A stretch of DNA of 64,000 nt from Candidatus Woesebacteria bacterium GW2011_GWB1_39_10. GTDB taxonomy: Bacteria; Patescibacteriota; Microgenomatia; UBA8517. This document shows positions 12,891 to 35,808 of the stretch, in pieces. The translations under genes were made by a program, and so were the position numbers. The notes beneath the pieces were generated by a model that ran no database searches, was not told the origin of the DNA, and was given only the letters and a program-made list of their open reading frames with translations. The stretch is from NCBI GenBank assembly GCA_000993205.1, contig LBVU01000004.1:124113-188112 (forward strand). The letters run 5' to 3'. Within the stretch, counting starts at the first letter, position 1, and each line of letters begins with the position of its first letter.

Positions 12891-13544
12891 ATGAGAAAAT
12901 CAAATCAGGTGGGGGCACATTTCGATAAAATTGCAAATTCTTATGATTTATATAAAAAAAATAACCAATACTATTACGACAACCTCAAAATACTTCTTGC
13001 GTCGTTCATTCACTCAAAATCAAAGGTATTAGAGATCGGTTGCGGCACCGGCGACCTGATTGCTTCTCTCAAGCCTGAGTATGGAATGGGCTTTGATATA
13101 AGCAATAAAATGATCGCTATCGCAAAAAGAAAACATAGAAATATTCATTTTTCAACGCATTGGCCAAAACAAAAATTTGATTACATTTTTATGAGTGATG
13201 TAGTAGAACATCTTGAATATCCGGACGAAACATTTCGTAAAATTTCCAAGCTCATGAATTGTAAATCTATATTTATTTGCACCATGGCAAATCCGAAACT
13301 GGAGCCAATTTTGATGATCGCAGAAAAAATGAAATTAAAAATGCCGGAAGGACCACATTATAGAATTAAGTACAAGGATCTAAGATCGATGATTGAAGAT
13401 TCCGGAATGGAAATAAGAGAGCACAATTTTAAACTTTTAATACCAATCAAAATTCCGCTTATTACCTATTTTGCAAATAAATATTTGGAGAGGTTTTTTA
13501 GAAAATACGCATTTATTGAATACTTTACGGCTACCAAGTCTTAA
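12891..13544 (+). CDS. Class I SAM-dependent methyltransferase
   Basis: Motif I VLEIGCGTGDL. Motif II region DYIFMSDVVEHL. 217 aa. Confidence 0.85.
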   Translation: MRKSNQVGAHFDKIANSYDLYKKNNQYYYDNLKILLASFIHSKSKVLEIGCGTGDLIASLKPEYGMGFDISNKMIAIAKRKHRNIHFSTHWPKQKFDYIFMSDVVEHLEYPDETFRKISKLMNCKSIFICTMANPKLEPILMIAEKMKLKMPEGPHYRIKYKDLRSMIEDSGMEIREHNFKLLIPIKIPLITYFANKYLERFFRKYAFIEYFTATKS

Positions 13545-14697
13545 ACTCTTTAAAAGCGGAGGCAGCTGTAGCAAGAAGCATTAATCCGTGTTTAAATCTC
13601 CTAATATTGGTTGCCCCATATACTCTTTCTTTATATCTAACCGGAATTTCCACAACTTTCAGATTATTTCTGACTGCGCCAAATATCAAATCAAAATCTC
13701 CAAAAGGATCAGACTTTGAGTGTTTAAAATTCATATAATCTTTTCGGAAAAAGGCTTTCGTTCCACAAAGAGTATCTTTAAATCTCTGTCCCAAGATCCA
13801 GGAAAATATTAAGCTGAACATTTTGTTACCGATTTTGTTTAATGTCTGCATGGCTTGGGCTTCCATGGGGTAAACCAGCCGGCTGCCGTTGGCAAATTCT
13901 CCGACTCCGTCGGATAGGGCGTTGTAAAATTTATTCAAGTCACTGCCGTCCACAGTCCTGTCCGCGTCATATATCATTAATATTTCATTTGATGCTTTTG
14001 AAAAACCCATTCTTACGGCATCTGCTTTTCCAATTCCCTTCTGTTTAAAAACTTTTACATTTCCATGCTTGGCCGCCACTTTTTTGATTTCGTCCCATGT
14101 TGCGTCATTCGAATGTCCTTCAATAAATATGTACTCTTGAGCTTTCCCAAAAATGGGAATTGAGGGAATAATTTTTGCGATATTCTTTTCTTCGTTCCTT
14201 GCCGGAATGATTATGGAAACTGAATATTTTTTAGCCCCAATTGGCTTGGGCCTGGCAATAACCAGAGTTATTAAACAAAAATTATTTAATATGGGCAAGT
14301 TTGCCAGATATTTATTGAAAAATTCCGTGATCAAGGGAATTATGACGGGTATTAGAACTCTTTTTTGTGTACTAATTACCTCAAATCCGGCGAGGTTTAA
14401 AAGTCCCGCCAAGTCGTATTCGTCTAACCAGTTTTGAGTACCAACAGTTCTTCTTAGCCCCAATTTTGACGCAAAAGATAAGAGCGGTTCCCAAAGATGA
14501 TTGTAATATGTTATTAGGATTCTAGTGTTTTCCGGTTTTGCCTTGTGAAGTTTTTCAAAATATTTTTGCAAATCGGGAGTACTCCCGATCACATTGTCCA
14601 AAACCACAACATTTTTTCCTTTCCGACCACCCAAGAATCTTTTGTGAATTTTTAGAAGTTCTTTTTTATAAAATTTTTGAAAGATATTGTCCGCCAT
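13531..14697 (-). CDS. GT2 glycosyltransferase (DPM1/GtrB-like catalytic domain) fused to an N-terminal methyltransferase-like domain with a degenerate SAM motif
   Basis: The C-terminal half has YSVSIIIPARNEEKNIAKII...MIYDADRT..GTKAF. The N-terminal roughly 150 aa align with the neighbouring methyltransferase: ILITYYNHLWEPLLSFASKLGL versus IFICTMANPKLEPILMIAEKMKL, and KRVLIPVIIPLITEFFNKYL versus FKLLIPIKIPLITYFANKYL. Motif I is replaced by VVVLDNVIGSTPD. Confidence 0.8.
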   Translation of the reverse strand: MADNIFQKFYKKELLKIHKRFLGGRKGKNVVVLDNVIGSTPDLQKYFEKLHKAKPENTRILITYYNHLWEPLLSFASKLGLRRTVGTQNWLDEYDLAGLLNLAGFEVISTQKRVLIPVIIPLITEFFNKYLANLPILNNFCLITLVIARPKPIGAKKYSVSIIIPARNEEKNIAKIIPSIPIFGKAQEYIFIEGHSNDATWDEIKKVAAKHGNVKVFKQKGIGKADAVRMGFSKASNEILMIYDADRTVDGSDLNKFYNALSDGVGEFANGSRLVYPMEAQAMQTLNKIGNKMFSLIFSWILGQRFKDTLCGTKAFFRKDYMNFKHSKSDPFGDFDLIFGAVRNNLKVVEIPVRYKERVYGATNIRRFKHGLMLLATAASAFKEFKTW

Positions 14698-15645: not shown

Positions 15646-16534
15646 TTATATCCCATTCAAATTTTTTTGCTTGTCGAATTGCTTTTTCAGACCATTTACC
15701 CTCCAAAACTGTTTTAATAGCCTTCGCATAGCCGGCAGTATCGGTGGGGTCAACTAATATCCCAGCATCACCAACAATTTCTTTTCTTATCGAATCATCT
15801 GTAGCTACAACCGGAAGGCCGGACGCCATTGCCTCTACCAATACATTTCCAAACGACTCAGATAATGCCGAGGGAAGGGTAAATACATCTGCCGCCCGGT
15901 AAACTTCAGGCATTTTCTCAAACGGAACACTCATTAATTTGAATCCATCACCCAATAATCGTTTACCTTCCTCACGAAGTTTTTCCTTTAAATCCCCGCC
16001 CCCGCCGACCATTAACAAACTCGCTCCAATCTTGGCCACAGCTTTAATCGCCAGATCCATTCTTTTTTGTTCAGTAAATGCCCCGACTGCTAAAACAATT
16101 GGCTTTTTTAAACTAACATGCAAGGACTGTCCTTGCATGTTAAATTTCTTAAGATCGACACCGTTGGGAATATAAACAGATTTTACAAAGGGATTGACTC
16201 CCTTTGCCCAAATTAACGCTTTAGTAGAAAGAGCGACGAAGATGTCCGGAAAACAGTAGAGATTAACTCTGTCATCCAAACCTTTCCCGGATTGACCCGA
16301 AACAATCATTTTTGCACCTGTCAGCCATGTAATAATTCTTACGATAACTACCTGTAAACGACCGTTTGTAGGAATTATTACATCGTATTTTTTCTTTAAC
16401 ATGTCAAAATAATTTACCTTTGAGATAGTATCAACTTCGTGATTTTTGGACAAACGTTTGGAAAGTTCGTATACAAAAGTTTCAGCCCCCCTATAAACTT
16501 TGTTTTGATAAATATTTATAAATGCTATCTTCAT
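15608..16534 (-). CDS. Glycosyltransferase family 4
   Basis: SESFGNVLVEAMASGLPVVATDDSIRKEIVGDAGILVDP. Confidence 0.85.
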   Translation of the reverse strand: MKIAFINIYQNKVYRGAETFVYELSKRLSKNHEVDTISKVNYFDMLKKKYDVIIPTNGRLQVVIVRIITWLTGAKMIVSGQSGKGLDDRVNLYCFPDIFVALSTKALIWAKGVNPFVKSVYIPNGVDLKKFNMQGQSLHVSLKKPIVLAVGAFTEQKRMDLAIKAVAKIGASLLMVGGGGDLKEKLREEGKRLLGDGFKLMSVPFEKMPEVYRAADVFTLPSALSESFGNVLVEAMASGLPVVATDDSIRKEIVGDAGILVDPTDTAGYAKAIKTVLEGKWSEKAIRQAKKFEWDIIALQYEKLLESF

Positions 16535-18701: not shown

Positions 18702-19467
18702 TAAAAGCTCTGAATTTGTACTTCAGGTCGGGAGTATTCCAAACCGATGTGACAATTTTTGGTCTATCCTTAAAAAAAACTTCTGGGAAATAAAAATCTT
18801 TAGGAAATTCGTCACCTATTTCATACTTCAGTTTCTTAGATCTTTTATATACATCTTGATTTTTATCGGACCGGCGCAAGTGAGTTGCATGCAAATAAGG
18901 TGCTTCTACGAAAATCATTTTAGATTGATTCCTTTTTTCGATTCTTTTTCCTTCTGCGTCAAACCAGCCAAAGATTCCATGTTTTCCTTTTGTGGTAAGT
19001 CCCGGAATATGCCTATTAAAGGCTCGCAGAGCATAGTGACCAACCTTGCTCGCAAGATTATATCTGCCAGCTTTTTTTTCCTGATAATGGAATATGTCAC
19101 CAACCAAATTATATGTGGGTACAACGATCGATTCTATGTTGTCGCCACTCGAATTAATCGTATCAACAACTTGCTTTATCGAATCATCCCACCATACTTC
19201 ATCCGCATCTACAATAATTACCCAGTCACAATCATCTTTCTGAAGCATTTCATCTCTAATTTTTGCTTCATCAAACTTATTTACAGACAATTTTTTAAAA
19301 TCAATGTTTTCATTCAATTTCATAATATTCTCTATAATTTCTATTGTGCCATCGGTACTTCCTGTATCCCATATATGGGCCCTATCAACGTATTTAATAA
19401 CAGACATTATTGAATACCAGGCAAATCTATTTTCATTTTTTAATAAAATGTGGGTACTAATTTTCAT
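18637..19467 (-). CDS. GT2-like glycosyltransferase (Glyco_tranf_2_4 type)
   Basis: HILLKNENRFAWYSIMSV...WDTGSTDGTIEII followed by VIIVDADEVW (DxD). Confidence 0.6.
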   Translation of the reverse strand: MKISTHILLKNENRFAWYSIMSVIKYVDRAHIWDTGSTDGTIEIIENIMKLNENIDFKKLSVNKFDEAKIRDEMLQKDDCDWVIIVDADEVWWDDSIKQVVDTINSSGDNIESIVVPTYNLVGDIFHYQEKKAGRYNLASKVGHYALRAFNRHIPGLTTKGKHGIFGWFDAEGKRIEKRNQSKMIFVEAPYLHATHLRRSDKNQDVYKRSKKLKYEIGDEFPKDFYFPEVFFKDRPKIVTSVWNTPDLKYKFRAFIETPLRKIYRRTLLRFQKHGY

Positions 19468-20803
19468 TTTTAGAATGTCTAAATTTAGCCAGAACCCAAA
19501 GGCCGGGAACTATAAAATTAAATATATTTCCTAAAAGTACGGCGTATGCGGCTCCCATAAAACCATAGTTTGATATAAGATACCATCCTGCACCAACGGT
19601 AATTAGAATGTTTCCGAAAGAAATAAAAACAAAAAGTTTCGGGTACTCAAAATAATAGAATATGGATGTATGGGCGGGAACTGATATCAAAAAGATCGCT
19701 TGAGCAAAAAGTAAAACAATAAAAGGACCGATTGCCTGTAAATAACTGCCCCCGTATAAGATCGGTATTATAAATTTTGACAAGGGTATCCCGACAGCGA
19801 TCCCAAAAATTGCCATAAAAATTGTAAAAATCTGAACTTTTTTGAGATACAACTTTGCCTTTAAATCTGAGTCAAATCCCGCAAGCTTGGGGGCTACAAC
19901 GGTACCAATAGCAAAGACGATCTGTGGAATAATACTGGAGAGCTGTAGTGCCGAAGAATAAATCCCGACATCATGCAGTGATAAAAGACTTGTTGAAAGT
20001 AATGTGTCAACCCTGCCTCCGAATGCTGCAACCAGTGTAAACAACGCAATCCAAATGTTATAACGGAAAAATTCACCGGCAACCTCTTTTTCATTTTCAA
20101 CATCAAAGAATTTAGGCAAAAACATGAGTCCCGCCAAAAAACCCAAAAAAGGAACCAAAATATACACGCTCAAAAAAGTGTTTGCACTCAAGAAACCAAA
20201 ATAGATAAGAGCCAAGGTTATCAAAAGGCGTATTAAATTTGTACCAATATTAACGCCATTCCAAATCCAGTATTTTTGAAGAGATTGGAGAGCGTATGTA
20301 GAAAAGGAAAAAAGTAAATAGCTTCCCACACCAATAAGAGCAAGGCGCATAGGAAAAATAAGTTCTGGTTTGGCAAAAAATCCATTTACAATCCCCGGCA
20401 CCAGGAACCAGCCTATGGATAAAACTGCAAGCCAGATCATAATCCGGACCTTCAGTGACAATTTTAGAAACTTGAATGCGCGAATCTTATCGGTATTTAT
20501 GTACTTACCTACAAATCGCACCATTCCGGTATCGCTGCCTACGTTGGCAATATCCCCAATGAGTGTTAGGATGGCAACAGAGACCGAAAAGGTTCCAAAA
20601 GCCGCCGGACCAAGTTGTCTTGCTAAAACAAAATAAAATACTAAGCCAAGAATTCCGTTTACAATAGTTCCGGATGATGTAATTAATGTCTGAGAAATAG
20701 TCTTTGTGGACAGAATTTCCTTTACTTTATCTAGATTTACGGTAAATCGCATATGCCAAGTATGACACAAGAAGCACTGAAATTGAACCCAAACTGATTC
20801 CAT
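19457..20803 (-). CDS. wzx: Wzx-type oligosaccharide flippase (MOP/PST superfamily polysaccharide biosynthesis protein)
   Basis: About 14 TM helices, glycine-rich hydrophobic profile, N-terminal ...TLITSSGTIVNGILGLVFYFVLARQLGPAAFG typical of the PST family. The probable true start is the internal MRFTVNLDKV (about 20752). Confidence 0.8.
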   Translation of the reverse strand: MESVWVQFQCFLCHTWHMRFTVNLDKVKEILSTKTISQTLITSSGTIVNGILGLVFYFVLARQLGPAAFGTFSVSVAILTLIGDIANVGSDTGMVRFVGKYINTDKIRAFKFLKLSLKVRIMIWLAVLSIGWFLVPGIVNGFFAKPELIFPMRLALIGVGSYLLFSFSTYALQSLQKYWIWNGVNIGTNLIRLLITLALIYFGFLSANTFLSVYILVPFLGFLAGLMFLPKFFDVENEKEVAGEFFRYNIWIALFTLVAAFGGRVDTLLSTSLLSLHDVGIYSSALQLSSIIPQIVFAIGTVVAPKLAGFDSDLKAKLYLKKVQIFTIFMAIFGIAVGIPLSKFIIPILYGGSYLQAIGPFIVLLFAQAIFLISVPAHTSIFYYFEYPKLFVFISFGNILITVGAGWYLISNYGFMGAAYAVLLGNIFNFIVPGLWVLAKFRHSKNEN

Positions 20804-23255
20804 TACTCAATTTTAAATTCTTCTCGCCCGTAAATTTAACCGTTACTTGATCAGCGTCTCCCAGATAAAATCCGTTTATCATAGAAAAAACCGGCAAATG
20901 CAGGTTGGATACATCGGATTCCCATCCGCGGTCAAAATTCTGAGTATAAATAAGCCAACTGTCATCGTCGCTTAACTGGTATTCATTTGTTAAACCACCA
21001 TTTTCTTTAATTGAAACGTCGTGCCATTCGGAAAGTGATGGGTTGGAATTATCTGAAATTCCAAAACGAGACATATACGCCTCAGCCTGTTTAATGGAAT
21101 CATTAAATTCACCTTCTGAAACAACAGCAATCGTATTTAAAACTTCCAAGTTCGTATCATTTTCAATCTCATATTCAAACTTGCCGGACTTTAAGGTTCT
21201 TTGTTCGAAATTCCATGTTAGTTTTTGCTGCTTTAAAGTCCCAGATCTTTTGGCTATTACATATTTTCCATCTTTCGGAATTTCAAAAATATAGTTAATT
21301 TTTTCTCCCTTTTTTGTAGAAAATGCCAATCCGCACCCAAAATCAAAATCCCTAAACTTATAACCTCGAATTAAAAGTTCATATTTATACTTAAGGTATT
21401 GATTAGAACTATAAATAGCCCATTCTGATTTTGAAGCATCGCCTACAAATTTGAAGTACCGTTGCAAAAAACTCATAGCAAGGTCTGTGGAATTACCTCC
21501 GTTCAATACTATTTTTAAAGAGTCCGGTCTAATTTTTTCAAATATTTTGGGATCAAATTTACCGCTCTCAGCGTAAACAGCTGTCGGAATTTTACTGGTA
21601 GGGATAATGTCGGACCCGACAATAAGTGCCAGTTTCTTTACCGAATAAACTTCCGGTCTTGGATCTTCAATCCTAAAAACCGGAATCTTTGTTCCCCAAT
21701 CTTCTTTTGTAAGTCCCGGAGTCTGTGAAACCAATTTGTTTATTTCCTCCCAATTTTTTACATCGTTCCTTGTCGGATAAAGATTGCGGGGGTCACCGGA
21801 CAATATAATATATTTAACACCAAATACTCTTAGCCAGTTTACAAAACCCTGATTATTCAAAAAATTGTAAGGGTCTTCACCCTCGTTAATGGAAGCAAAT
21901 GGTCTATACGACACAAGTTGGTTAGCACTAAGGGCTGGTTTAGCTGAAGTTTCGAAAGCAACCTGTGGTTTTTCGTTAAACCATAACGTCTTGAAATTAT
22001 CGTTCACCTGATTCAAATTGTTATATATTATCTGATAATCACTGCTTTCACGCCTTGCAGATAAATTAAAGTTCATTTTTCCGATAATCGCTGGGGAAAT
22101 TAGTAAAATAAGGTATAGGTAGACCGCAACAAATACGAACCGCTTTAAGTGAATATTTCTAAATAAATTACAGGCCAAGTCAACCGTATTCCCAATTAAA
22201 ATTCCCCCCAAAAGGACCATGGGAATAAAAAACTTGCTTGAATCCCTGAAAATAGAACCGAATGGAACCCTGTTTACAAAAAATTCATACCAACTTCCCA
22301 ACGGGGGCGCGCTTCCTTTGGAAACAAAGGCAAAAAATAAAAATATCAGGGAGAAAATATAATATTTTTTATCCACCTTCCTGAACATTAATCCGCCGAA
22401 CGCCAAAGCAGGAATAAGGGAAAAGTAAAAAAACGGCTGAACGACTTTACCAAAAATGTTAGACGGCCAGTGAGGCGCAAATAAAAACAAAGAATTAAGG
22501 AGCGACGAAAGTTGGAGTTCTGTAACTGAAGTACTAAGCCCCCCCACTCCACCTTTCATTATAGGCAAGAGCCAGGAAGCATTCACGGGAATTAAAAGAA
22601 TTCCGGCCAACATTAACCAGAACAAATTTTTAACCCGGACTTCTAAAATTTGCCACAAAAATATTACCAGAAAAGACAAGGTTCCGATGCGGGGATCAAT
22701 ATAACAAAGAGTAACAGTTGCAAAAAGAGCAAGGGCAAATTTATGGATTGAAAAATTATCAAGAAACCTTTTCCAAAAAAGAACCGTAAATGGAAAAACA
22801 CCATAACTAAGAGCTATTCCCACCTGTCCGCCATCTATCAATAAAATAAAATAAGTATTCAAAAGATAAAAGAGTGAAGAAAAGAATTGCACAGTTTTTG
22901 ACAATTTTAGATATCTGGTCAAAAAATAAGGACCAAACCCGGCAAGTATTACAGACGGAAAATAAAAAAGAATTCTGACAATTGCGTCGTTTCCCAATCC
23001 AAGATATTTATTAAGGGCTCCATAAATCACCATCATTGGAGAAAGCCAAAGAGCGAGATTTCTTCCGCCAAAATCCGTACCATTTTGGGACCAAATCGAA
23101 AGCCCCGAAACAAGTTCCTTCAATCCTTCGGGGTAAAAATACGGAGCATCTCCCCAAGCCAAATGCAGATTTCTAAAAAAAGATATAAAAACAAAAAAGG
23201 AAGGGGTCAAAATCAAAAATACATAAAACAAGTTATTTATATGCTTTTTATTCAT
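20727..23255 (-). CDS. Large polytopic membrane protein (842 aa): N-terminal multi-TM domain, large extracytoplasmic domain and C-terminal TM anchor. Candidate GT-C glycosyltransferase (YfhO/AftD-like architecture)
   Basis: Hydrophobic N-terminal roughly 400 aa with acidic loop HLAWGDAPYFYPEG. Roughly 400 aa hydrophilic domain. The C-terminus ends ...INGFYLGD...ISLGSISVLLVSYLAYAIYRK (a TM helix). Confidence 0.45.
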   Translation of the reverse strand: MNKKHINNLFYVFLILTPSFFVFISFFRNLHLAWGDAPYFYPEGLKELVSGLSIWSQNGTDFGGRNLALWLSPMMVIYGALNKYLGLGNDAIVRILFYFPSVILAGFGPYFLTRYLKLSKTVQFFSSLFYLLNTYFILLIDGGQVGIALSYGVFPFTVLFWKRFLDNFSIHKFALALFATVTLCYIDPRIGTLSFLVIFLWQILEVRVKNLFWLMLAGILLIPVNASWLLPIMKGGVGGLSTSVTELQLSSLLNSLFLFAPHWPSNIFGKVVQPFFYFSLIPALAFGGLMFRKVDKKYYIFSLIFLFFAFVSKGSAPPLGSWYEFFVNRVPFGSIFRDSSKFFIPMVLLGGILIGNTVDLACNLFRNIHLKRFVFVAVYLYLILLISPAIIGKMNFNLSARRESSDYQIIYNNLNQVNDNFKTLWFNEKPQVAFETSAKPALSANQLVSYRPFASINEGEDPYNFLNNQGFVNWLRVFGVKYIILSGDPRNLYPTRNDVKNWEEINKLVSQTPGLTKEDWGTKIPVFRIEDPRPEVYSVKKLALIVGSDIIPTSKIPTAVYAESGKFDPKIFEKIRPDSLKIVLNGGNSTDLAMSFLQRYFKFVGDASKSEWAIYSSNQYLKYKYELLIRGYKFRDFDFGCGLAFSTKKGEKINYIFEIPKDGKYVIAKRSGTLKQQKLTWNFEQRTLKSGKFEYEIENDTNLEVLNTIAVVSEGEFNDSIKQAEAYMSRFGISDNSNPSLSEWHDVSIKENGGLTNEYQLSDDDSWLIYTQNFDRGWESDVSNLHLPVFSMINGFYLGDADQVTVKFTGEKNLKLSNGISLGSISVLLVSYLAYAIYRKSR

Positions 23256-23412
23256 TTTTTGAATAATTAATAATTACTCCGATTACCAAAACAAAAAACA
23301 TATAATTCGATATTTTTATTGCCACTCCTGAATGGTTTGTAAAAAGTAAAAAACCTGTTACCAAATAATCTAGTAACACAAAAGCCAAAATATATTTTCC
23401 CATTATTTTCAT
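23248..23412 (-). CDS. Small hypothetical membrane protein (54 aa, 2 TM), not in the ORF track
   Basis: The reverse complement reads MKIMGKYILAFVLLDYLVTGFLLFTNHSGVAIKISNYMFFVLVIGVIINYSKNE*. A TATAAT box lies 10 nt upstream. Its stop overlaps the ATG of the 842-aa gene (ATGAATAA). It fills an otherwise 170-bp gap. Confidence 0.35.
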   Translation of the reverse strand: MKIMGKYILAFVLLDYLVTGFLLFTNHSGVAIKISNYMFFVLVIGVIINYSKNE

Positions 23413-23426
23413 TTTAACAAATTATA

Positions 23427-24230
23427 CTAAACCCCCTCCGTCCAATATCTGCCAGTATAAAAACGAAACACCATAAATGTAAAACCCTTTAACGCCTTGT
23501 AAAGATACCTTAACTTAAGCTTATTGCCTTTTTTTGCGTTTCCATACTTTACAGGAACCATTTTGTATTTCGCTCCAAGTTTTAACGAAAGTACTCTCAA
23601 TTCCGTTTGTACCAAATGCGGAACAATGGTTACAGAAACCCATTTTTCTATGTCTGACTTAGAAAATAGTTGTTTTAAAAATTTTGAAGAGAAGGCTTCA
23701 TAACCACTGGTTAAGTCGGACAGAGGTGGATATATCCCAAAAAAAACATTAGAAAGAGAAGTTCCGATTTTACTAATGATTACTCTTTGTATAGGTAAAT
23801 TTTTAAAACCACCCCCTCTTGAAAATCTCGTGGAAAATACACAATCACATTTTTCTTCGATCAGCCCTTTTAAAAAAATTGGGATCTTATTGGGATCGTG
23901 CATGGCCACGTCCATCTCTATAACATAATCTACTCCATCGGCAACCGCCCTTTCAAAACCTGACAGGTAGGATCTGGCAAACGTCAATTTTTTATTTTTT
24001 ATTAGTTTATGATTGGATATTACCTTTTTATACTTTTTAGAAAGCTTGATGACAAAGTTGTAACTTTCGATGGGTGTGTAATCATCGGTAGTAAAAACAA
24101 TCTCAAATTTACCGAAATATTTGGTTTTTGAAAATACTTTATATATATCTTCAACAGTCTTTTCTAACGATTTAAAGGTTTCTCTACCAACACACAAACA
24201 CACAGCAATTTTGGGTTTATTTTTATACAT
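23427..24230 (-). CDS. GT2 glycosyltransferase, DPM1-like
   Basis: KIAVCLCVGRETFKSL..., EMDVAMHDP (a D-x-D..H motif like the Dpm1 DAD motif), and YGNAKKGNKLKL. Confidence 0.65.
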   Translation of the reverse strand: MYKNKPKIAVCLCVGRETFKSLEKTVEDIYKVFSKTKYFGKFEIVFTTDDYTPIESYNFVIKLSKKYKKVISNHKLIKNKKLTFARSYLSGFERAVADGVDYVIEMDVAMHDPNKIPIFLKGLIEEKCDCVFSTRFSRGGGFKNLPIQRVIISKIGTSLSNVFFGIYPPLSDLTSGYEAFSSKFLKQLFSKSDIEKWVSVTIVPHLVQTELRVLSLKLGAKYKMVPVKYGNAKKGNKLKLRYLYKALKGFTFMVFRFYTGRYWTEGV

Positions 24231-25446
24231 GCAATACTTTCTTTGAAAAAGAGATCGCTTGTTCTACTGCAACATCCGAATTCACATGTTCCCATCTCCC
24301 CCATCTTCCAATTCCAAAAATTTTATTTTTCTCTCCCCATTTTAAAATATCTGCTATTATTTTATTTTTCCCGATAACATTTACTGGGTATGAATATTCA
24401 TTTGTCTGTGAAAAAATTTTACTCTTACCCTTATTCATTCTGGCAGCGTTCGTTTCTGTCCAATGCCCGCGGGATCCTGTGACGAAATTGTGTCTATGTA
24501 AAATTCTGTGAAATGAAACTTTTTCATCGGGAATATATGTCCAATGTGCAGGAGAATCGAAATTGGTATTAAAATAATCAACACGTATTGGTACATGTTT
24601 TAATTTAAGCATCTTTTTATTTATATTGACAGGGAAATTGGAAACCCTAGATAAGGTTGGCCAAGGAATTGTATTTACTACACACTCAGCTTTATATTTC
24701 TTATTTATGATTTTATTTTTAAAATCAAATGACTTTACCGAACAATTATATACGATATGACCTTCCATACTTTTGGCGATTTTTAACCAAACTTCGCCAT
24801 ACCCTCCAATTTTAGGGTAATAAAATTTTTTATGTGCCGGGATTCTACCTTTTGCCATTTTACTTAAACAACTTTCGATTATTTCTTCAAGCGACACGTC
24901 TGGAATTTTATTAAACCACGTAGTACTTAAATTTTTAAAATGGTCTCCCCACAATTTTTTGTTGTAGGGGATCATGTAATTTTTGGCAATTTCATCTCCA
25001 TATTTAAGATAGACCCACTTATGAAACTTTTTTACATTTGTTAATTTATTACGCGATACACTGGAAACTTTAAACAAAGACTTAAGGTAAATTACCTGAA
25101 GATCAATAGGTAAGTGCCATATGTGAGATTCAATCGGATAATCTATAAGTTGTCCGTGAATCGCTATTTTTGAAATTCTTTTATAAATGTTCCAATTTTT
25201 CTTCGGTAAAAAACGAAATATAAATTTTAATACTTCTTTATTCCTAACATCCAAAAAGTGCCCACCACCAATATCAAGTGGCGTATCATCTACAATTTTG
25301 CTTCTACACAGGCCCCCAGCCTCTTTCTCTTTTTCTAAAATAATAAATGACTTTTCTCCTCTATCTAACAACGATCTTCCAAGTGCAAGCCCCGAAGGCC
25401 CCGCACCAAGAATTAAATATTTGTATTCTTTGACTTTATTAACCAT
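24223..25446 (-). CDS. glf: UDP-galactopyranose mutase
   Basis: Alignment blocks against E. coli Glf: YLILGAGPSGL (FAD GxGxxG), YNKKLWG versus YTEKQWG, FYYPKIGGYGEVWLKIAKSM versus YQGIPVGGYTKLIEKM, EYSYPVN versus EPYYPVN, and GIGRWGRWEHVNSDVAVEQAI versus FGGRLAEYKYYDMHQVISAAL. Confidence 0.8.
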   Translation of the reverse strand: MVNKVKEYKYLILGAGPSGLALGRSLLDRGEKSFIILEKEKEAGGLCRSKIVDDTPLDIGGGHFLDVRNKEVLKFIFRFLPKKNWNIYKRISKIAIHGQLIDYPIESHIWHLPIDLQVIYLKSLFKVSSVSRNKLTNVKKFHKWVYLKYGDEIAKNYMIPYNKKLWGDHFKNLSTTWFNKIPDVSLEEIIESCLSKMAKGRIPAHKKFYYPKIGGYGEVWLKIAKSMEGHIVYNCSVKSFDFKNKIINKKYKAECVVNTIPWPTLSRVSNFPVNINKKMLKLKHVPIRVDYFNTNFDSPAHWTYIPDEKVSFHRILHRHNFVTGSRGHWTETNAARMNKGKSKIFSQTNEYSYPVNVIGKNKIIADILKWGEKNKIFGIGRWGRWEHVNSDVAVEQAISFSKKVLHV

Positions 25447-25650
25447 ATAAAATTATTAGGCATAGTATAGCCGACAAATAGTCTTTATGATATATAATAC
25501 GAGGATGACAGAAGATATATCAAATGAACCGCCAGAGCATGGAGGTTAGAAAAGAACACTAGAGGCCGAACAGGGAGGGGTTTTTGCCTTAAAAGCTGGT
25601 TCTTACAATCAAGCGACGGGGGGTAAAGGCAAAACTTAAATTAAATTTTA
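25447..25650. other. GC-rich intergenic island with an internal stem-loop; possible small structured RNA or regulatory leader
   Basis: The local composition (ccgccagagcatggagg...ggccgaacagggaggggtttttgcc...gcgacggggggtaaaggcaaaac) contrasts with its AT-rich surroundings. ttttgcctt at about 25579 pairs with aaggcaaaa at about 25628. No ORF of 60 aa or more. Confidence 0.2.
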
Positions 25651-26019
25651 TTAGGAGCTTATAAACTTAATAATTACTATTACCAAAAAACCATAAATAT
25701 AATTACCGATCAATTCCGATAACGGCAACAGGCCAAGTGAATCAAAAAAATAGGAGATTATAAATAAACCGAAACAAAAATACAAAATCGTTTTCCAACC
25801 AATTTTAAATATCTGGAATAAACTAGTCAAAATTAAAAAAACAACCAATTCCTTCGTAAAAATTAAATTAAAATAAGGTAGCTGCGAAACTAACAGCCAA
25901 AAGGACATCGTAAATATAAAGAGAATTAAGCGAACCCTATTAATGTTTATCCACACAAAAGCTTTACTTAAATAACCATCTAATAAACTATCCAAATAAC
26001 CAGGTTTAATTTTTCTCAT
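25651..26019 (-). CDS. Small hypothetical integral membrane protein (122 aa, 3-4 TM)
   Basis: Hydrophobic segments LILFIFTMSFWLLV, VVFLILTSLFQIF and YFCFGLFIISYFF. 14-bp overlap with the upstream giant gene. Confidence 0.5.
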   Translation of the reverse strand: MRKIKPGYLDSLLDGYLSKAFVWININRVRLILFIFTMSFWLLVSQLPYFNLIFTKELVVFLILTSLFQIFKIGWKTILYFCFGLFIISYFFDSLGLLPLSELIGNYIYGFLVIVIIKFISS

Positions 26020-29000
26020 TTTTTATTGTTCGTACCCAAGCTATTAAATATAATATCGCCAATATTATTATCGAAGAGATCGAAATTTTTAGACCCTTGC
26101 TAAATAATTCTTGTGGCTGGTACACCAACAACAAATCATATTGTCTACCTCCTCCAGACAATAACCACCCATTTTCATAACCATTCACTGAAAAGTGATC
26201 TGTAATCGGAGTACCGTTCGCATCTGTAAGTTTCCACAGACCATTAAATGCTTGATTAAAAATCAAAACCATATCGCCATTAAATTTGTTTGTCGTAATA
26301 TTGTATCTTGTTGGATCTATTTTTTTGTAAGTGAGAGTTGTCGCTTCGACATTAATACTATTATTTTTAACTGCATAAATTTCCGGATTAAAAATCTCAA
26401 GAACATTTAATTTAACATTTTCGGGAATGGATCTGTCGTATCTACAAAGATAAATCAATGGAACGTTCGCTCCCACAGAAGGATCAAAAAAATACTTAAA
26501 CGAGTTGCCATCAGGGTTTAACGAAACATCCATTTCAATATCACCCCTTAAGAATTCATCTGTTGATTGATTTCTCTGGCTATTCTCTTTGATATATAGT
26601 CTCATGTTCGGTAAATAGATATCAGATGATAAGGTCAAAACGTAATTTCTGTATTTATTAAAATTATTGATTTTGCCTATTACGCATCCGCGAGTTCCTA
26701 AAGGAAAGTCCACCTCTTCTTTATTGATAACTTTAAATAGGTCTGGTAAATATTGAAAAATTAAATCTAACTCTCCGGTTTTAGGAAATTCCGCTGGATC
26801 AGTAAACATCCACTTTTTATCCTCAACGTTCTTGAGATTTAAGTTTTGACCGGTGCTCAACGCCATGTCTGACGGAATGACAACTCCACCTTTGTTGTCG
26901 CTGGGCAACGTAGCCTTATCGATAAGAAGACTGTACTGACCGCTGGACGGAAGACTAATATTGTAAATTTTATTCAAATTCCATTTCCCTCCGTCCCCTA
27001 TCAATCCATCATATTGTTTTTTTAACAATGTACTTTGCCAAAGGATTTTAAACATATTATTTTTAATATCCGATTTCTCATAACCAAAATTTGAATTACT
27101 TATATAATCTCTGAAATATCTCTGAATAGGATTCACTGTTTCGTAAATTCTGGAAGCAAAATAGAAATTTGATTTCAGAGAGTTTGACTTGAAAAGTATA
27201 TTATTTATATTTTCCAAATAGTTATTCAAATCATTTAATCCCAGGTTTATATATTTTTTATCGATCTGTAAATCAATCATCGACCTTATCTCGCTCAGTT
27301 TAGTCATCGCTAAACCTATATGCGCGGCAAGTCTTGAATTTTCATCATCGACACTCGACAATATTTTTTCATTTCTTTCTTTCTTGATCGCATAAAAAGG
27401 TGAATTGGGCAACACTCTTACAGGAGGAAGGTCTGCGTGTTTCCCTAAATTTTCGACAAGACATGATTCACAGTTTAGAGGATAATATTCCTGAAGAACC
27501 AACTTATCTAAACCGTTATTTACACTCTCTGAACTCAACCAATCTTTCGTGTTGTCTTTTGAGATTATAGGTTCTTTGGATATATATATATGATCCTTGG
27601 GAACTGAAAAAAAATTATTGACCAGTCTAAACGTATTATTTTCTTCTGTGTTTTTGATACGTAAAAGTGACCATGGTCCGACTGTTTTGACAAGTTTTAA
27701 CTCGTCGTTGTCAATAAAACTTTTTACTGCTGCAAAATATTCTTCGCTTACCTCACTATCCTCAGCCTGAAAATCACTTCTTATAAATAAATAGTTTATT
27801 CCGAGTTTTTTTGAGACATCAAAAAAAACAGGGCTTTTTTGCAATAAAAGCGCAAAGAGTTTGTTTATCTTGTCTGATTCGACGGAATTATTTATTACAT
27901 CGTTGACCATGAACGAACCGTTAGCAAACAATACAGACGGCAACGGGGAAAGGCTCCAATACCCCCAGGTATAATTATCATTACCCGATCCGCCATCAAA
28001 GGCCGGTAACATTAATGCCCTTCCGGTAAAATTTGTATCTTTTAGCCAATTGTTAAACTCAGTCGCATATTCAGGAACCTTTACAAGTGTGCTTTTATCC
28101 GGCTGCCATTTAAACAAAAAGTCCCGGTTAAACATTATAAAGTTATAAAATAACCACCCGACGGCAACCGTCAATACAAAAAGCGGGCCGGAAATGAGCA
28201 TCGTATTCTTTAATCTACGACCAATCAGATTGTTAATCTTTGAAAAAATAAATTCCCCCAGTATCGACAATGAATATGCAAGAAGAATTGAATAGGAAAT
28301 TATGAACGAGGTGGCAAATTTAAAATAAGGAGACCGGAATATCGAAAACCCCGGAATTTTTTCATATAAAGCGGTGTAGACAAATCCCAACGGGGAGTTT
28401 GTCCCGGCTGTAAAAAACATTGAAATAAGTAGTAAAAATAAAAAGAAGAAAATCAGATATTTTTTATCTTTTTCTTTAACAAATAACATACCGGAAAATG
28501 ATAATATCGGAAGCAAAAAACTGACTAATACCAATATGCGATTAGTCAAATATAATCCTGCATAAGAATATTCGGGATTTGGTAAACCGCCAGTCAAATA
28601 CCATTCCGGAACGCCCTGAAATCTAAATAGATTAATAAAAAAGGTCCCTCTGCTTATATAAATAAGCCATTCCTTTCCTGCTGCAATTGTTCCCTGTCCT
28701 ACAACAACTGCGTAATCTGAGCTAATTAATATAGAAATAAAAGGCAAGATCGAATACATATTAAGCAAAACAAAAAAAACAAAACTTAAAAGACAGAAGA
28801 TTAAAGTTCTTCTAAAATAAGAAAGGTCTTTTTCCTTTTTCGCAATTATTATGGCAAATAGCAAATAAACCATTCCTGCAACAAATAAACTGCCATAAAG
28901 AGGTAAACCTAACCAGCTACCGCCATTAAAAATGGAAAAAATAACGGAAAAAATAATCGAACTTCTTAAAACCGGTTTTTTCCTGTCAAACAATATCCCC

Positions 29001-29497
29001 AAGGCAAATGTCAGGAAAAGAAGAATGACACAAACTAGTTCATACTTTGCTCTCTCTAAAATAAATATCGATTGGAATATGAAAAAATTAAAAGTTAAAA
29101 ATAATGGGAAAAAATATGGAACAAGTCTTCCCAATTTTTGTTTCAGCGAATATGAAAAAATAGAAGAAAAAATAAAAAGCATACTTAACCAAAAAAACAC
29201 CGCAACTTGATTTCCGGCGAAAGAACTTGTCCCAAATAGAGACAAAGCGTAATCAATTGAGTGGAGCATTACACTCCCAAAATGCGGTGAGTTGTCAACT
29301 CCAAAATCAATACGGTCATCCCAAGCAAAAAATCTCGTTTTTAAAAAACTTTTCGCGTCTAATGCAAGACCTGAATCGTGTCCCGCAACCACATAACCCG
29401 AGGGAACCCACATCTTGGTCAAAAACCATATTCCGATTAAAGCCACGGCAACATAAACCAGATAATGTACCAGCTCTTTGTTAAAAAGGTTTTTCAT
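26006..29497 (-). CDS. Giant polytopic membrane protein (1163 aa): N-terminal GT-C-like transmembrane domain, roughly 650-aa extracytoplasmic domain and C-terminal TM anchor. Candidate novel GT-C glycosyltransferase (AftD/YfhO-like architecture)
   Basis: The N-terminal roughly 480 aa are highly hydrophobic, with the acidic loop FFAWDDRIDFGVDNSPHFG. The long hydrophilic region is rich in N/K/S. The C-terminus ...VNGYENGWLLSGGGRQYDLLLVYQPQ...ISISSIIILAILYLIAWV is a TM helix. Confidence 0.45.
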   Translation of the reverse strand: MKNLFNKELVHYLVYVAVALIGIWFLTKMWVPSGYVVAGHDSGLALDAKSFLKTRFFAWDDRIDFGVDNSPHFGSVMLHSIDYALSLFGTSSFAGNQVAVFFWLSMLFIFSSIFSYSLKQKLGRLVPYFFPLFLTFNFFIFQSIFILERAKYELVCVILLFLTFALGILFDRKKPVLRSSIIFSVIFSIFNGGSWLGLPLYGSLFVAGMVYLLFAIIIAKKEKDLSYFRRTLIFCLLSFVFFVLLNMYSILPFISILISSDYAVVVGQGTIAAGKEWLIYISRGTFFINLFRFQGVPEWYLTGGLPNPEYSYAGLYLTNRILVLVSFLLPILSFSGMLFVKEKDKKYLIFFFLFLLLISMFFTAGTNSPLGFVYTALYEKIPGFSIFRSPYFKFATSFIISYSILLAYSLSILGEFIFSKINNLIGRRLKNTMLISGPLFVLTVAVGWLFYNFIMFNRDFLFKWQPDKSTLVKVPEYATEFNNWLKDTNFTGRALMLPAFDGGSGNDNYTWGYWSLSPLPSVLFANGSFMVNDVINNSVESDKINKLFALLLQKSPVFFDVSKKLGINYLFIRSDFQAEDSEVSEEYFAAVKSFIDNDELKLVKTVGPWSLLRIKNTEENNTFRLVNNFFSVPKDHIYISKEPIISKDNTKDWLSSESVNNGLDKLVLQEYYPLNCESCLVENLGKHADLPPVRVLPNSPFYAIKKERNEKILSSVDDENSRLAAHIGLAMTKLSEIRSMIDLQIDKKYINLGLNDLNNYLENINNILFKSNSLKSNFYFASRIYETVNPIQRYFRDYISNSNFGYEKSDIKNNMFKILWQSTLLKKQYDGLIGDGGKWNLNKIYNISLPSSGQYSLLIDKATLPSDNKGGVVIPSDMALSTGQNLNLKNVEDKKWMFTDPAEFPKTGELDLIFQYLPDLFKVINKEEVDFPLGTRGCVIGKINNFNKYRNYVLTLSSDIYLPNMRLYIKENSQRNQSTDEFLRGDIEMDVSLNPDGNSFKYFFDPSVGANVPLIYLCRYDRSIPENVKLNVLEIFNPEIYAVKNNSINVEATTLTYKKIDPTRYNITTNKFNGDMVLIFNQAFNGLWKLTDANGTPITDHFSVNGYENGWLLSGGGRQYDLLLVYQPQELFSKGLKISISSIIILAILYLIAWVRTIKNEKN

Positions 29498-30162
29498 TTA
29501 TTTCTAAAAACCAGAAAGCAGGTACTGTTTATATACGGAAGGTTGGTTTTAATAGGAAATCCAAAACTAAAATATTTGCTTATTCTGTACATTAAAGGGA
29601 TAAAAGTCGCATAAACCACTTTTGTTCCGGAAAACCCCGCAGACTTACCCTTTTTTACCCACCAGAAAGCCGGATGGACATTGATATGCGTTGGGTCGGT
29701 AAGTGATCTTTTTGTGGGAAATGGGGTAGAAAAAACAAGGGTTCCGCCTTTTTTTAGCATACTCCTAATGTTTTTCAGAGATTTTTCAGGATTTTTGAGA
29801 TGTTCAAGAACCTCAAACGCGACTACAAAATCATACTTTTTATCTGTACTGTCTTTTTCCACGTCGAATTTGAAAAACTTAATATCTTTTTGGATTTTCC
29901 CAGCTTTACCGACTATAAATGAGGAAATATCGCTCCCGGTAACATCAAACCCTCTGTTTTTAAAAATTCTTGAAAAGTATCCCAATGAAGCCCCCAACTC
30001 ATGAAGACTTCTCCTTTCTCCTCTTTTAATATCCACATATTTATCTAAAAACCGAACCCAGCCGTCAGCCCAGTTGACATACATATCAAATTCAGATTTT
30101 GTATATTTATCAAAAAATCTTTTGTAATATTTCTTGTCGAAATTTGAATTCCCGTGTACCAT
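29494..30162 (-). CDS. Class I SAM-dependent methyltransferase
   Basis: LHELGASLGYFS motif I, DFVVAFEVLEHL motif II, and GGTLVFSTP. Confidence 0.85.
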   Translation of the reverse strand: MVHGNSNFDKKYYKRFFDKYTKSEFDMYVNWADGWVRFLDKYVDIKRGERRSLHELGASLGYFSRIFKNRGFDVTGSDISSFIVGKAGKIQKDIKFFKFDVEKDSTDKKYDFVVAFEVLEHLKNPEKSLKNIRSMLKKGGTLVFSTPFPTKRSLTDPTHINVHPAFWWVKKGKSAGFSGTKVVYATFIPLMYRISKYFSFGFPIKTNLPYINSTCFLVFRNK

Positions 30163-33834: not shown

Positions 33835-35808
33835 TTAATAGTAATAAGGAATGTCCTTGCCCTGAATTTCTGTGAACGTAAGATTTCTAATCACTGAATT
33901 TAAAATTCGTATCTTTGCTCCTGTCGGATAACCGTCAATCATAATTTTTTGAATCGCTAGCCCACCAGGAGGTAAATATAAATTGTATGTATGGGGATAG
34001 CCATCAGCTAAAATATCAATATCTTTTGCATAAAAATTTTGATAAGTATTTCTCCTCTCCGTCATCCACCAAATTTTTATACTAACGGTGTTACCAATCA
34101 TATTTTTAGATGTTTTCTGATCGAGCAGCAATGTCAAATTTAAAACTGTCGGAACAAGGCTTGGATAACCAACTTCAGATTCCACAAAGTGATTTTTAGA
34201 ATAATCCCACCTATCAATGACTAACGGTTTTAATCTTTGTGTTAATTCTTTTCTGAAATCTTCAGTCGTCGGAACAAAGCCCAATTTTTCTGAAGCAAAA
34301 AAAGTATAAACATTTTCTAATTTATATTTACCACTTATTATAAGGTCATAAACCTCAGGAAATGTATCGACCATTTTAGTAATTCCCTCGTAATTATAAA
34401 AAATTGAAATTCCAGTCTCCCCCATACCTGCCAAAACATTATTCTTCACACGAGGCTCATCCTCAGTATCAATAAAGAAAACGGTATCTTTATCAACCTT
34501 TGGAACATTGGCCATAATTATTTTGTAAGCATTTTGTGTTGGAAAACTTACATAGTTAACAATTTCGTCCTGAACCTTTTGTGATTGAAAAATCAAATAT
34601 ACACAAAACACACCAATAAATAGATAGGCAAGAAATCTTCCATATCTTTTAGAGAAAAATAAATGGTCTTTGATAATTAAAAATAATCCTGAATAAATAA
34701 AGGTTGTTCCCACAAAAGATGGCAGCGCATAGCGGCTAATTGAATCTAAACTGTTTGTAGGATTGTAAACAAAATAACTTACGATATTACCAACAACAAC
34801 AACCAGTCCCAACAAAAGAATATTCGAAATTGTTTTGGCCTTTTTCCTAATAAAAAGACCGACTGATACAATAAACAGTGTAATCAATAATCCGTTCAGG
34901 TGAGAAAGGCTTTCCAAGGAAATTTTAATCTTAAACAAAAGCTGTAGAAAATCAGAAAAATTCTTTACCAATAAATCTGGGACAATAATATGAGAAATCA
35001 TACCAAATAAATTACCTATTGAAATCACAAATTGACCTCCCAAAAAATTTTTCAGTAGTGTCCCCATGAAGCCGGATGACTGTGCGCCTGAGGATTCCGA
35101 AGGATTTGTGTATATATGTATATACATAAATAAATAAATTACTAGAAATGGCAGAAACTTAATAATGAGGTTGATAACGTTCTTAAGACCCTTCCTAAAA
35201 CCCAGGAGAAAAATTAAGGCAAACATTATAATAACCACTCCGTGCGAACGAAGAAACAGGAATTGAATAGTTATAATGTAGAAAATCAAGGAAATGGCAT
35301 AAAATTTAGTTCCTCTTCCCAAAAGATATTTAACCAAGAGTAGAGCGGTAAGATTGATGAAAATTGCCGTTAGACTAAATTGGTAGGACTCATTAACCCT
35401 ATAAAGAGCAAAAGAAGCAATATATCCACTGGCATAAATGGTTGATGCTATAAAACCAGCCAGTTTATTTCTAGTAATTTCTTTTGCCAAAAGGTAGACG
35501 GTAAAAGCTGCAAGAAAATACAGGAAAAGGCCAATCGCAAAGTACGGCATGGCGTTAGTACCAAACAACGGATAAAGAAGGATGAACGGAGTTGCAGTGT
35601 ATTTATACGCACCCTGACCTAAAATTCCAGCTCCAATGTAGCCCACGGAAGACCCCGGGTGAACCATTTTATAAAGAAGTGTCCAATCATCAACCCACCA
35701 GTACATCAGTAACGTCTTACCGTAGGAAATGTAACTAACTAATAATAACCAGAGAAAAATCAAGTATTCGGAATATTTTTGAAAAATATGATCAAACTTT
35801 TTCAACAT
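33835..35808 (-). CDS. Large polytopic membrane protein (657 aa), candidate GT-C glycosyltransferase; member of the W-x-D-D/E-W loop paralog trio
   Basis: About 13 TM helices, then a roughly 250-aa C-terminal soluble domain. The first loop is LLMYWWVDDWTLLYKMVHPGSS. Confidence 0.45.
   Translation of the reverse strand: MLKKFDHIFQKYSEYLIFLWLLLVSYISYGKTLLMYWWVDDWTLLYKMVHPGSSVGYIGAGILGQGAYKYTATPFILLYPLFGTNAMPYFAIGLFLYFLAAFTVYLLAKEITRNKLAGFIASTIYASGYIASFALYRVNESYQFSLTAIFINLTALLLVKYLLGRGTKFYAISLIFYIITIQFLFLRSHGVVIIMFALIFLLGFRKGLKNVINLIIKFLPFLVIYLFMYIHIYTNPSESSGAQSSGFMGTLLKNFLGGQFVISIGNLFGMISHIIVPDLLVKNFSDFLQLLFKIKISLESLSHLNGLLITLFIVSVGLFIRKKAKTISNILLLGLVVVVGNIVSYFVYNPTNSLDSISRYALPSFVGTTFIYSGLFLIIKDHLFFSKRYGRFLAYLFIGVFCVYLIFQSQKVQDEIVNYVSFPTQNAYKIIMANVPKVDKDTVFFIDTEDEPRVKNNVLAGMGETGISIFYNYEGITKMVDTFPEVYDLIISGKYKLENVYTFFASEKLGFVPTTEDFRKELTQRLKPLVIDRWDYSKNHFVESEVGYPSLVPTVLNLTLLLDQKTSKNMIGNTVSIKIWWMTERRNTYQNFYAKDIDILADGYPHTYNLYLPPGGLAIQKIMIDGYPTGAKIRILNSVIRNLTFTEIQGKDIPYYY

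Follow-up and report, generated by a model that had tools for sequence, protein, structure and literature searches.

A large GT-C glycosyltransferase distantly related to mycobacterial AftD in a glycan-biosynthesis island of Candidatus Woesebacteria

Introduction

What does a giant membrane protein with a large extracytoplasmic domain do among the sugar genes of an ultrasmall bacterium? The question is raised by a 64,000-nucleotide stretch of DNA, hereafter the window, from Candidatus Woesebacteria bacterium GW2011_GWB1_39_10 (contig LBVU01000004.1, positions 124,113 to 188,112), a groundwater member of the Candidate Phyla Radiation (CPR). An earlier note, made from the letters of the window without database searches, had singled out a protein of 1163 amino acids (aa) at positions 26006-29497 as a possible GT-C enzyme. 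It had likened the protein to mycobacterial AftD and to YfhO-family proteins, and had pointed to a nearby gene for galactofuranose supply (Glf).

AftD is an essential cell-wall enzyme of mycobacteria, a furanosyltransferase that uses a lipid-linked donor, and its homologs have been reported only from twelve orders of Actinobacteria (AftD paper). The AftD ectodomain comprises a trio of carbohydrate-binding modules (CBMs) as well as a structural beta-sandwich, followed by transmembrane (TM) helix TM12 and by a TM13-16 bundle that binds acyl carrier protein (AftD paper). The sequence and model comparisons described here indicate that the window protein is a GT-C enzyme and a true, though very distant, relative of AftD that can be assigned to Pfam family PF11847.

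Results

A real gene with a large family

The gene in question is the following.

26006..29497, minus strand: AftD-family GT-C glycosyltransferase gene (1163 aa, ATG to stop, stop codon included)

The earlier note was right that a protein of this length lies here, with the correction that the coding strand is the minus strand, on which the span forms one open reading frame (ORF) from ATG to stop; the plus-strand frame is riddled with stops. A word-indexed search recovered 120 homologs, nearly all of 1100-1190 aa, with identities from 70% down to 24% and most at E=0 to 1e-70. Since so many proteins of this size were recovered, we regard the gene as real. The identical protein is present on 17 public contigs, the Rifle groundwater metagenome among them, and those relatives that carry names belong to Woesebacteria, Levybacteria or the 'Patescibacteria group'. 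When the family profile was run with HMMER against 1.84 billion representative proteins, 11,159 matched at E<=1e-3, 7,030 of them reaching E<=1e-10 and 2,013 reaching E<=1e-30. Paralog families must be included in the lower tiers; the top 150 matches (E<1e-211) are nearly all full-length, at about 1,070-1,190 aa. A promoter and terminator scan gave signals no better than those in shuffled sequence.

Assignment to the AftD-type GT-C family

PF11847 (GT-C_AftD, formerly DUF3367) was the sole Pfam match. With 27.1 bits (E 1.3e-6) it just exceeds the gathering score, which is 26, and it spans residues 315-611 of the protein and positions 264-544 of the profile. The earlier view that no motif assigns the protein to a known family is thereby superseded; NCBI already labels one CPR member an 'alpha-(1->3)-arabinofuranosyltransferase family protein', others being left 'hypothetical'. 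When eight other members were compared with Pfam, PF11847 appeared at E<=0.01 in five and above the gathering score in four, with the relatives scoring 24-32 bits. The suggested likeness to YfhO failed the same comparison, in which neither the protein nor the eight relatives matched YfhO (PF09586) or PTPS_related at E<=0.01. Literature searches returned nothing that links arabinofuranosyltransferases to CPR or Patescibacteria, and DUF3367 only in an unrelated context.

By sequence, the only PDB matches were the Mycobacterium abscessus AftD entries 6W98, 6WBX and 6WBY, found at E 6e-4 from the single sequence and at E 7.8e-7 from a profile of 48 sequences. The match consists of three colinear stretches, which cover loop 1, the alpha/beta domain on the outside, and the final beta segment together with its TM helix. 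A Foldseek search of the PDB with the AlphaFold2 model likewise placed AftD at the top (E 1.2e-16), followed by STT3 (1.9e-6), ArnT (7.8e-4) and AftA (1.7e-2); in the model, the 11-TM GT-C fold and the outer alpha/beta domain superimpose on AftD. Profile-profile alignment by hhalign with 13 mycobacterial AftD sequences gave a probability of 91.4% (E 9.3e-7, 521 columns), pairing residues 38-636 with AftD 30-630, that is, the whole GT-C module. Pfam, PDB sequence, fold and profile-profile comparisons thus bear out the GT-C reading of the earlier note and show that the likeness to AftD is true homology, beyond shared architecture. Searches of Pfam, NCBIfam, PDB sequences and folds produced no match to a peptidase or adhesin, the families that the note had named as telling against a glycosyltransferase. 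Weak fold matches to Cry toxins and helical bundles reflect the helical insert and beta domains described below.

Topology, domains and conserved residues

By Kyte-Doolittle hydropathy, residues 1-450 contain 12-13 hydrophobic segments, and a further one lies at 1135-1153. The AlphaFold2 model, built from the alignment of 48 sequences (predicted local distance difference test 87.2, predicted TM-score 0.78), has 11 TM helices with juxtamembrane helices as in AftD, a soluble region at residues 463-1126 and one C-terminal TM helix. Its N-in topology leaves loop 1 and the 660-residue domain outside the cell. The N-terminal multi-TM module that had been proposed is therefore present, its count of about 13 helices being slightly too high. 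The hydrophilic middle region is indeed rich in asparagine, lysine and serine (N 10.8%, K 7.6%, S 8.1%), and the C-terminal ending ...VNGYENGWLLSGG... followed by a TM helix had been read correctly from the translation. The protein divides into five parts, all encoded on the minus strand.

28112..29497, minus strand: membrane GT-C module, residues 1-462 (model helices, invariant columns, AftD column match)
27455..28111, minus strand: extracytoplasmic alpha/beta domain of the GT-C module, residues 463-681 (phmmer, hmmsearch and hhalign alignments with AftD 438-570; secondary structure)
26975..27394, minus strand: all-helical bundle, a DUF5667-like insert of about 140 aa, residues 702-841 (model helices)
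26120..26974, minus strand: beta-sandwich region of about 285 aa, residues 842-1126 (model strands)
26009..26119, minus strand: C-terminal TM anchor, equivalent to AftD TM12, with a short basic cytoplasmic tail, residues 1127-1163 (hydropathy, model helix, AftD TM12 alignment)

The membrane module carries G39-H40-D41, R55, W59, G66 and H79 in loop 1, the series R292..G295..W299, and R388/K393; the alpha/beta domain carries W511-G512-Y513-W-S515, D575 and a C676-x-x-C679 pair. Homologs match Pfam PF18915 (DUF5667) at about residues 685-765, which corresponds to the helical insert. The beta-sandwich region, with weak fold matches to CBM22 and to glycan-binding proteins, probably consists of two CBM-like domains. 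Residues 1061-1152 align with AftD 1192-1281, and the motif VNGYENGW (VNGWQQGW in AftD) precedes the TM12 equivalent, about 10 residues after which (1135-1153) the chain ends.

Across the 48 homologs, G39-H40-D41 (D41 in 48/48), R55, W59, G66, H79 and K393 are invariant, and R388 is nearly so, at 90% or more. The beta region contributes the invariant W1088 and W1111. Four cysteines of the outer part are also invariant (C676-x-x-C679, C938 and C1018), which fits an extracytoplasmic location. The acidic first loop of the earlier note exists, with FFAWDDRIDFGVDNS in the first extracytoplasmic loop; its aspartate pair is moderately conserved (D60 in 29/48; D61 in 17/48, with E in another 10/48), D68 occurs in 41/48, and the invariant acid is instead D41. 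Conservation of a loop-1 acid among homologs, on which the note had made its proposal depend, was thus found at D41.

Residue-level comparison with AftD

The AftD comparison set consisted of 13 full-length genes that were cut from a genome scan and then aligned. Its M. abscessus-like copy was checked, and K39, D41, E251, K361, D474 and E475 stand at their published positions. The aligned columns shared with the window protein are listed below, AftD residue first; all pairs are invariant in both families except R357 / R388, which is an aligned pair.

W57 / W59
F63-G64 / F65-G66
H77 / H79
P244 / P252
R267 / R292
G268 / G295
W272 / W299
R357 / R388 (loop before TM10)
K361 / K393 (loop before TM10)
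W469-G470 / W511-G512
D535 / D575

These columns fall within motifs common to both proteins: W..FG..H in loop 1, SL.E/N.LR..G...W, R357/K361, WG, and RND/RSD. Both proteins also have a large outer domain, at the end of which come a beta segment that is homologous between the two and TM12, a re-entrant TM helix. Identity, on the other hand, is merely 11-14%, and the architectures diverge at several points. The DUF5667-like helical bundle of the window protein stands where AftD has CBM1 and CBM2, and only the last segment of its beta structure is homologous to AftD. The window protein has no TM13-16 four-helix bundle and hence no acyl-carrier-protein site. Its partner is a 122-aa protein whereas that of AftD is TmaT, and its host is a CPR bacterium, AftD homologs having been reported only in Actinobacteria. 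AftD E251 and D474/E475 are unmatched, and the loop-1 aspartate is shifted by two positions.

In AftD, K39, D41, E251, K361 and D474 are essential (AftD paper; re-tested in M. smegmatis). In the alignment, D41 of the window protein is paired with AftD K39, AftD D41 with G43, and AftD D37 with G39, and this loop alignment, at 18% identity, may be off by two. D41 of the window protein lies in the same strand as AftD D41/D37, two positions away, and the AftD lysine has no equivalent in the alignment.

Some AftD fragments deserve a separate remark. Part of an aftD gene lies on a contig binned as 'Candidatus Sericytochromatia bacterium' (L025, JBLNEK010000314.1) and shows 74% identity to the M. abscessus query; values of this order are typical of Mycobacteriaceae, so that the contig has probably been mis-binned. 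Entry P0126, a protein of 146 aa from a 439-nt contig, bears the label 'alpha-(1->3)-arabinofuranosyltransferase domain-containing protein, partial [Escherichia coli]'. As it shares 75% identity with AftD of M. abscessus, it is probably mycobacterial contamination of an E. coli assembly. A 131-aa AftD fragment used as query retrieved short fragments only, and one such locus, L004, has a frameshifted aftD.

A small membrane partner, a paralog and a conserved gene module

The surroundings of the gene were compared in 87 homolog loci, seven obtained by exact look-up and 80 by metagenome scan, with phmmer and a script for ORFs and TM segments. In the window, five genes on the minus strand are of interest here.

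29494..30162, minus strand: S-adenosylmethionine (SAM)-dependent methyltransferase, 222 aa (Pfam Methyltransf_23/11/12; its stop overlaps the GT-C start as ATGA)
25651..26019, minus strand: membrane partner, 122 aa (overlap of 14 nt between its start and the end of the GT-C gene; four TM helices and an N-terminal amphipathic helix)
23248..23412, minus strand: conserved membrane mini-ORF, 54 aa, immediately upstream of the paralog (homologs in L001, L002 and L086)
20727..23255, minus strand: GT-C paralog, 842 aa (same N-terminal module, C-terminal beta segment and TM anchor)
19457..20803, minus strand: Wzx-type flippase (Pfam Polysacc_synt; after the paralog in L001, L002, L003, L085 and L086)

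The strongest of these associations is with the 122-aa protein. In 65 of the 68 loci that have enough downstream sequence, the start of an ORF of 100-166 aa with at least three TM segments coincides with or overlaps the GT-C stop codon, and a P[YF]x[NS] motif ('LPYFNL') follows the first TM helix in 61 of these 65 small ORFs. The model of the 122-aa protein (predicted local distance difference test 85) has an N-terminal amphipathic helix and four TM helices and found no fold match in the PDB; six members gave no Pfam match even at E<=10, and a word-indexed search with the protein returned six close homologs only. It may be a subunit of the enzyme or, purely by analogy with other systems, a flippase for the carrier lipid.

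In 28 of 65 homolog loci the GT-C gene is directly preceded by a methyltransferase of the same type and strand. The 842-aa protein aligns with the GT-C family alignment by hhalign (95%, E 3.9e-8, 486 columns), and an ortholog lies downstream on the same strand in 20 of the 39 loci with at least 4.5 kb of downstream sequence. Among these 39 loci, Wzx is present in 16 and the mini-ORF has phmmer matches in seven. Each of the two AftD-type GT-C genes of the window adjoins a tiny membrane ORF of its own (122 aa and 54 aa). In order of transcription the minus-strand run reads methyltransferase, GT-C, 122-aa ORF, a 205-nt gap, a 407-aa flavoenzyme, a GT2, the mini-ORF, the 842-aa paralog and Wzx.

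The mutase-like gene and the question of galactofuranose

The flavoenzyme and the GT2 of this run bear on the proposed link to galactofuranose.

24223..25446, minus strand: UDP-galactopyranose-mutase-like flavoenzyme, 407 aa (PDB matches to UDP-galactopyranose mutases (UGMs) only; local cassette)
23427..24230, minus strand: Dpm1-like GT2, 267 aa (its start overlaps the mutase-like stop by 8 nt)

The statement that the GT-C gene sits next to Glf holds in so far as a mutase-like gene is close by; the 122-aa ORF and the 205-nt gap intervene. All PDB matches of the mutase-like protein below E 1e-6 are UGMs, the best being of the eukaryotic type (Aspergillus fumigatus, E 2.6e-23; Trypanosoma cruzi, 1.8e-17), and the flavin-loop GGH is aligned. 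Against the NCBIfam Glf model TIGR00031 the protein scores 47.8 bits, the cut-off being 303.75, and at two substrate-binding positions of the A. fumigatus enzyme it has R182 replaced by K and Y453, the tyrosine of 'WRY', replaced by H. For the 267-aa GT2 the sole PDB match is Pyrococcus furiosus dolichol-phosphate mannose synthase (5mlz, E 4.1e-7), alongside weak Pfam GT2 and AglJ matches; because of that one PDB match we consider it a candidate polyprenyl-phosphate sugar synthase.

Co-occurrence of glf with the family, a check that the earlier note had proposed, was found in one locus only. The mutase-like gene is real, and among the 39 loci with at least 4.5 kb downstream the pair accompanies the family solely in L096, where its position matches that in the window. 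A galactofuranose link does not therefore extend to the family as a general trait. Since it occurs in one of 39 homolog loci, the mutase/GT2 pair is a local cassette and cannot define the sugar of the family. A 423-aa flavoprotein two genes downstream of a distant homolog (L088) was examined and rejected as an ortholog of the mutase-like protein, as only the Rossmann motif matches.

The segment between partner and paralog (23427-25650 in the window) is variable; certain genomes have 0.3 kb here, whereas others have 2.5-4.6 kb. It was compared between the window and L001, L002, L085, L086, L094, L100, L108, L109 and L003; L096 shares the cargo of the window. Elsewhere the slot holds PMT_2 proteins, DUF6541 proteins, unknown 650-aa membrane proteins, a methyltransferase, other GT2s or stand-alone DUF5667 proteins. 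In the window it opens with the 205-nt non-coding gap (25447-25650). Base composition over the cassette shows no anomaly, so that recent transfer has no compositional evidence. Stand-alone DUF5667 proteins of 166-177 aa occur in glycan islands, at 53579-54079 (plus strand) in the window and at 15785-16318 in L109; the L109 gene occupies the variable slot beside the GT-C gene, and its domain is that of the GT-C helical insert.

The surrounding glycan island

Nearly all of the 64 kb (579-63644) forms a single glycan-biosynthesis island, a large share of a CPR genome of roughly 1 Mb. Besides Wzx, it includes five PMT_2-type GT-C genes (2651-4147, 10698-11999, 16531-17922, 55020-57131 and 60760-62739) and a Wzy_C gene (4113-5486). 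GT2/GT4 genes number more than 12 and SAM methyltransferases about 9, and there are many nucleoside-diphosphate-sugar epimerases and dehydratases, together with a DegT aminotransferase (57132-58190) and an amidotransferase that resembles AsnB (43979-45826). One further GT2 may be listed for its resemblance to lipid-linked sugar synthases.

13531..14697, minus strand: AglJ/Dol-P-hexose-transferase-like GT2, 388 aa (AglJ 118 bits, cut-off 325; Dol-P-hexose transferase 69 bits)

In this protein a partial Methyltransf_23-like N-terminus (residues 29-109) is fused to a GT2 domain (160-378), and a close ortholog exists in the related Woesebacteria genome L001 (phmmer E 6e-190). Three ORFs on the minus strand, at 33835-35808, 37004-39475 and 39472-41235 (657, 823 and 587 aa), had no Pfam or NCBIfam match; the 823-aa ORF was considered as an AftD-like family member and found to be unrelated. 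The ORFs of the window that were scanned with Pfam include no UbiA-type phosphoribosyltransferase and no DprE1/DprE2-type protein of the decaprenyl-phospho-arabinose pathway.

Discussion

On the analogy of characterised GT-C enzymes (AftD, ArnT, PglB and the Gtr-type three-component systems), we consider it likely that the window protein is a transferase that works outside the cell, with a polyprenyl-phosphate sugar as donor and a surface glycan as acceptor. In the mechanism that we propose, the sugar would be taken from its polyprenyl-phosphate carrier on the extracytoplasmic side of the membrane and passed to a growing surface glycan, while the beta-sandwich domains might hold the acceptor. 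The invariant D41 of loop 1 could act on or position the acceptor, or else a metal ion, and R388 and K393 might bind the donor phosphate; the aspartate and the basic pair would all lie at the active site. Gene order suggests that the enzyme would work with the translationally coupled four-helix membrane protein of 122 aa, and that it would belong to a conserved module with the 842-aa paralog and Wzx inside the 60-kb glycan island.

An arrangement of GT-C, lipid-linked donor and flippase has been described for the three-component systems GtrA/GtrB/Gtr*, ArnC/ArnEF/ArnT and Citrobacter GT136 (PMC11127046). The window resembles these systems in combining a GT-C protein with a CBM-like domain at its C-terminus, a Dpm1/GtrB-like GT2 as a potential source of the polyprenyl-phosphate sugar, and a small multi-TM protein encoded beside the GT-C gene, everything lying within a Wzx/Wzy-type glycan locus. 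It departs from them in that no similarity to GtrA, SMR or MATE flippases is detectable in the small protein, the GT2 is not conserved beside GT-C genes of the window type, and the GT-C protein is twice the size of Gtr*/ArnT and is accompanied by a paralog.

Several observations weigh against the assignment to AftD-type enzymes and against the proposed activity. The PF11847 score is marginal and some relatives miss the threshold, and the 1163-aa protein has no NCBIfam match. The designation of AftD as the closest relative rests on comparison with solved structures and Pfam, and a solved YfhO structure is absent from the PDB matches. Among the five essential AftD residues only K361 (K393 here) is identical. 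AftD E251 is replaced by S259, the nearest acid, D261, not being among the conserved columns, and D474/E475 are replaced by L516/S517 within WGYWSLSP. As only one of the five is matched, the catalytic geometry may differ from that of AftD, or the loop alignment may be off. The small partner, too, is without detectable similarity to the known flippases GtrA, SMR and MATE.

Other explanations of the same data can be envisaged. The GT-C protein could be a galactofuranosyl transferase or polymerase, for which the mutase would make UDP-Galf (UDP-galactofuranose) and the Dpm1-like GT2 would load it onto polyprenyl phosphate; this strikes us as rather unlikely. The mutase-like gene does match only UGMs in the PDB (E 2.6e-23) with GGH aligned, is translationally coupled to the GT2 that resembles Dol-P-Man synthase, and forms with it a pair that lies between two AftD-type GT-C genes and recurs at the same place in L096. 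AftD itself, moreover, is a furanosyltransferase with a lipid-linked donor. Yet the pair is missing from 38 of the 39 homolog loci with enough flanking sequence, unrelated genes fill the slot in other genomes, and the mutase-like protein falls far under the NCBIfam Glf cut-off and has K and H at the positions aligned to R182 and Y453. In addition, seven GT-C genes of the window could use such a donor, and a literature search gave no described polyprenyl-phosphate-Galf donor. It is speculative that the mutase-like and Dpm1-like pair supplies one lipid-linked donor, possibly a hexofuranose, in this genome, and we give little credence to the narrower idea that the cassette feeds the GT-C protein a lipid-linked galactofuranose. 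A bolder version is equally improbable in our eyes: the GT-C protein, its partner with four helices, the 842-aa paralog and the mini-protein of 54 aa would form a CPR-shared machine that builds a core envelope polymer outside the cell, and exchangeable cassettes inserted between the two GT-C genes would swap its donors, the donor here being a polyprenyl-phosphate hexofuranose such as C55-P-Galf. If this were true, C55-P-Galf would be the hexose counterpart of decaprenyl-phospho-arabinose, so far undescribed.

A function of the YfhO/PTPS_related type from Firmicutes, in which single sugars from C55-P-sugar donors would decorate teichoic-acid-like polymers and the match to AftD would merely reflect which structures are solved, seems very unlikely to us. 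The domain order, which runs from a multi-TM module at the N-terminus through an outer domain to the last TM helix at the C-terminus, is compatible with it, as are the weak PTPS_related match of the 842-aa paralog (E 1e-3) and the fact that CPR bacteria are monoderm-like. The absence of YfhO or PTPS_related matches from the protein and its eight relatives, together with the repeated appearance of PF11847, argues the other way, as do the colinear AftD matches that extend to the C-terminal beta segment and TM12. It is highly improbable, in our judgement, that the protein is an inactive scaffold or regulator organising other envelope enzymes, a role that would echo the recently reported complex of AftD with TmaT. 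The unmatched AftD E251 and D474/E475, the obligate small membrane partner and the functional complex that AftD forms with another membrane enzyme might be read in this way. However, the catalytic residues of AftD are still needed for the function of that complex, and the invariance of D41, R55, H79 and K393, with R388 nearly so, across identities of 24-70% argues for a preserved active site.

As a GT-C enzyme of the AftD type, the window protein belongs to a very large and deeply diverged branch of the AftD family in ultrasmall CPR bacteria. Comparison of the branches separates the core parts, namely the TM module, the alpha/beta domain on the outside, R357/K361, the final beta segment and TM12, from parts that are specific to Actinobacteria, namely the CBMs and the ACP-binding (acyl-carrier-protein-binding) bundle. 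For annotation, the members straddle the Pfam threshold and carry inconsistent labels, and the name 'arabinofuranosyltransferase family' over-states what is known of the sugar. The conserved CPR module of methyltransferase, GT-C protein, small partner, paralog and Wzx probably builds part of a little-known cell envelope.

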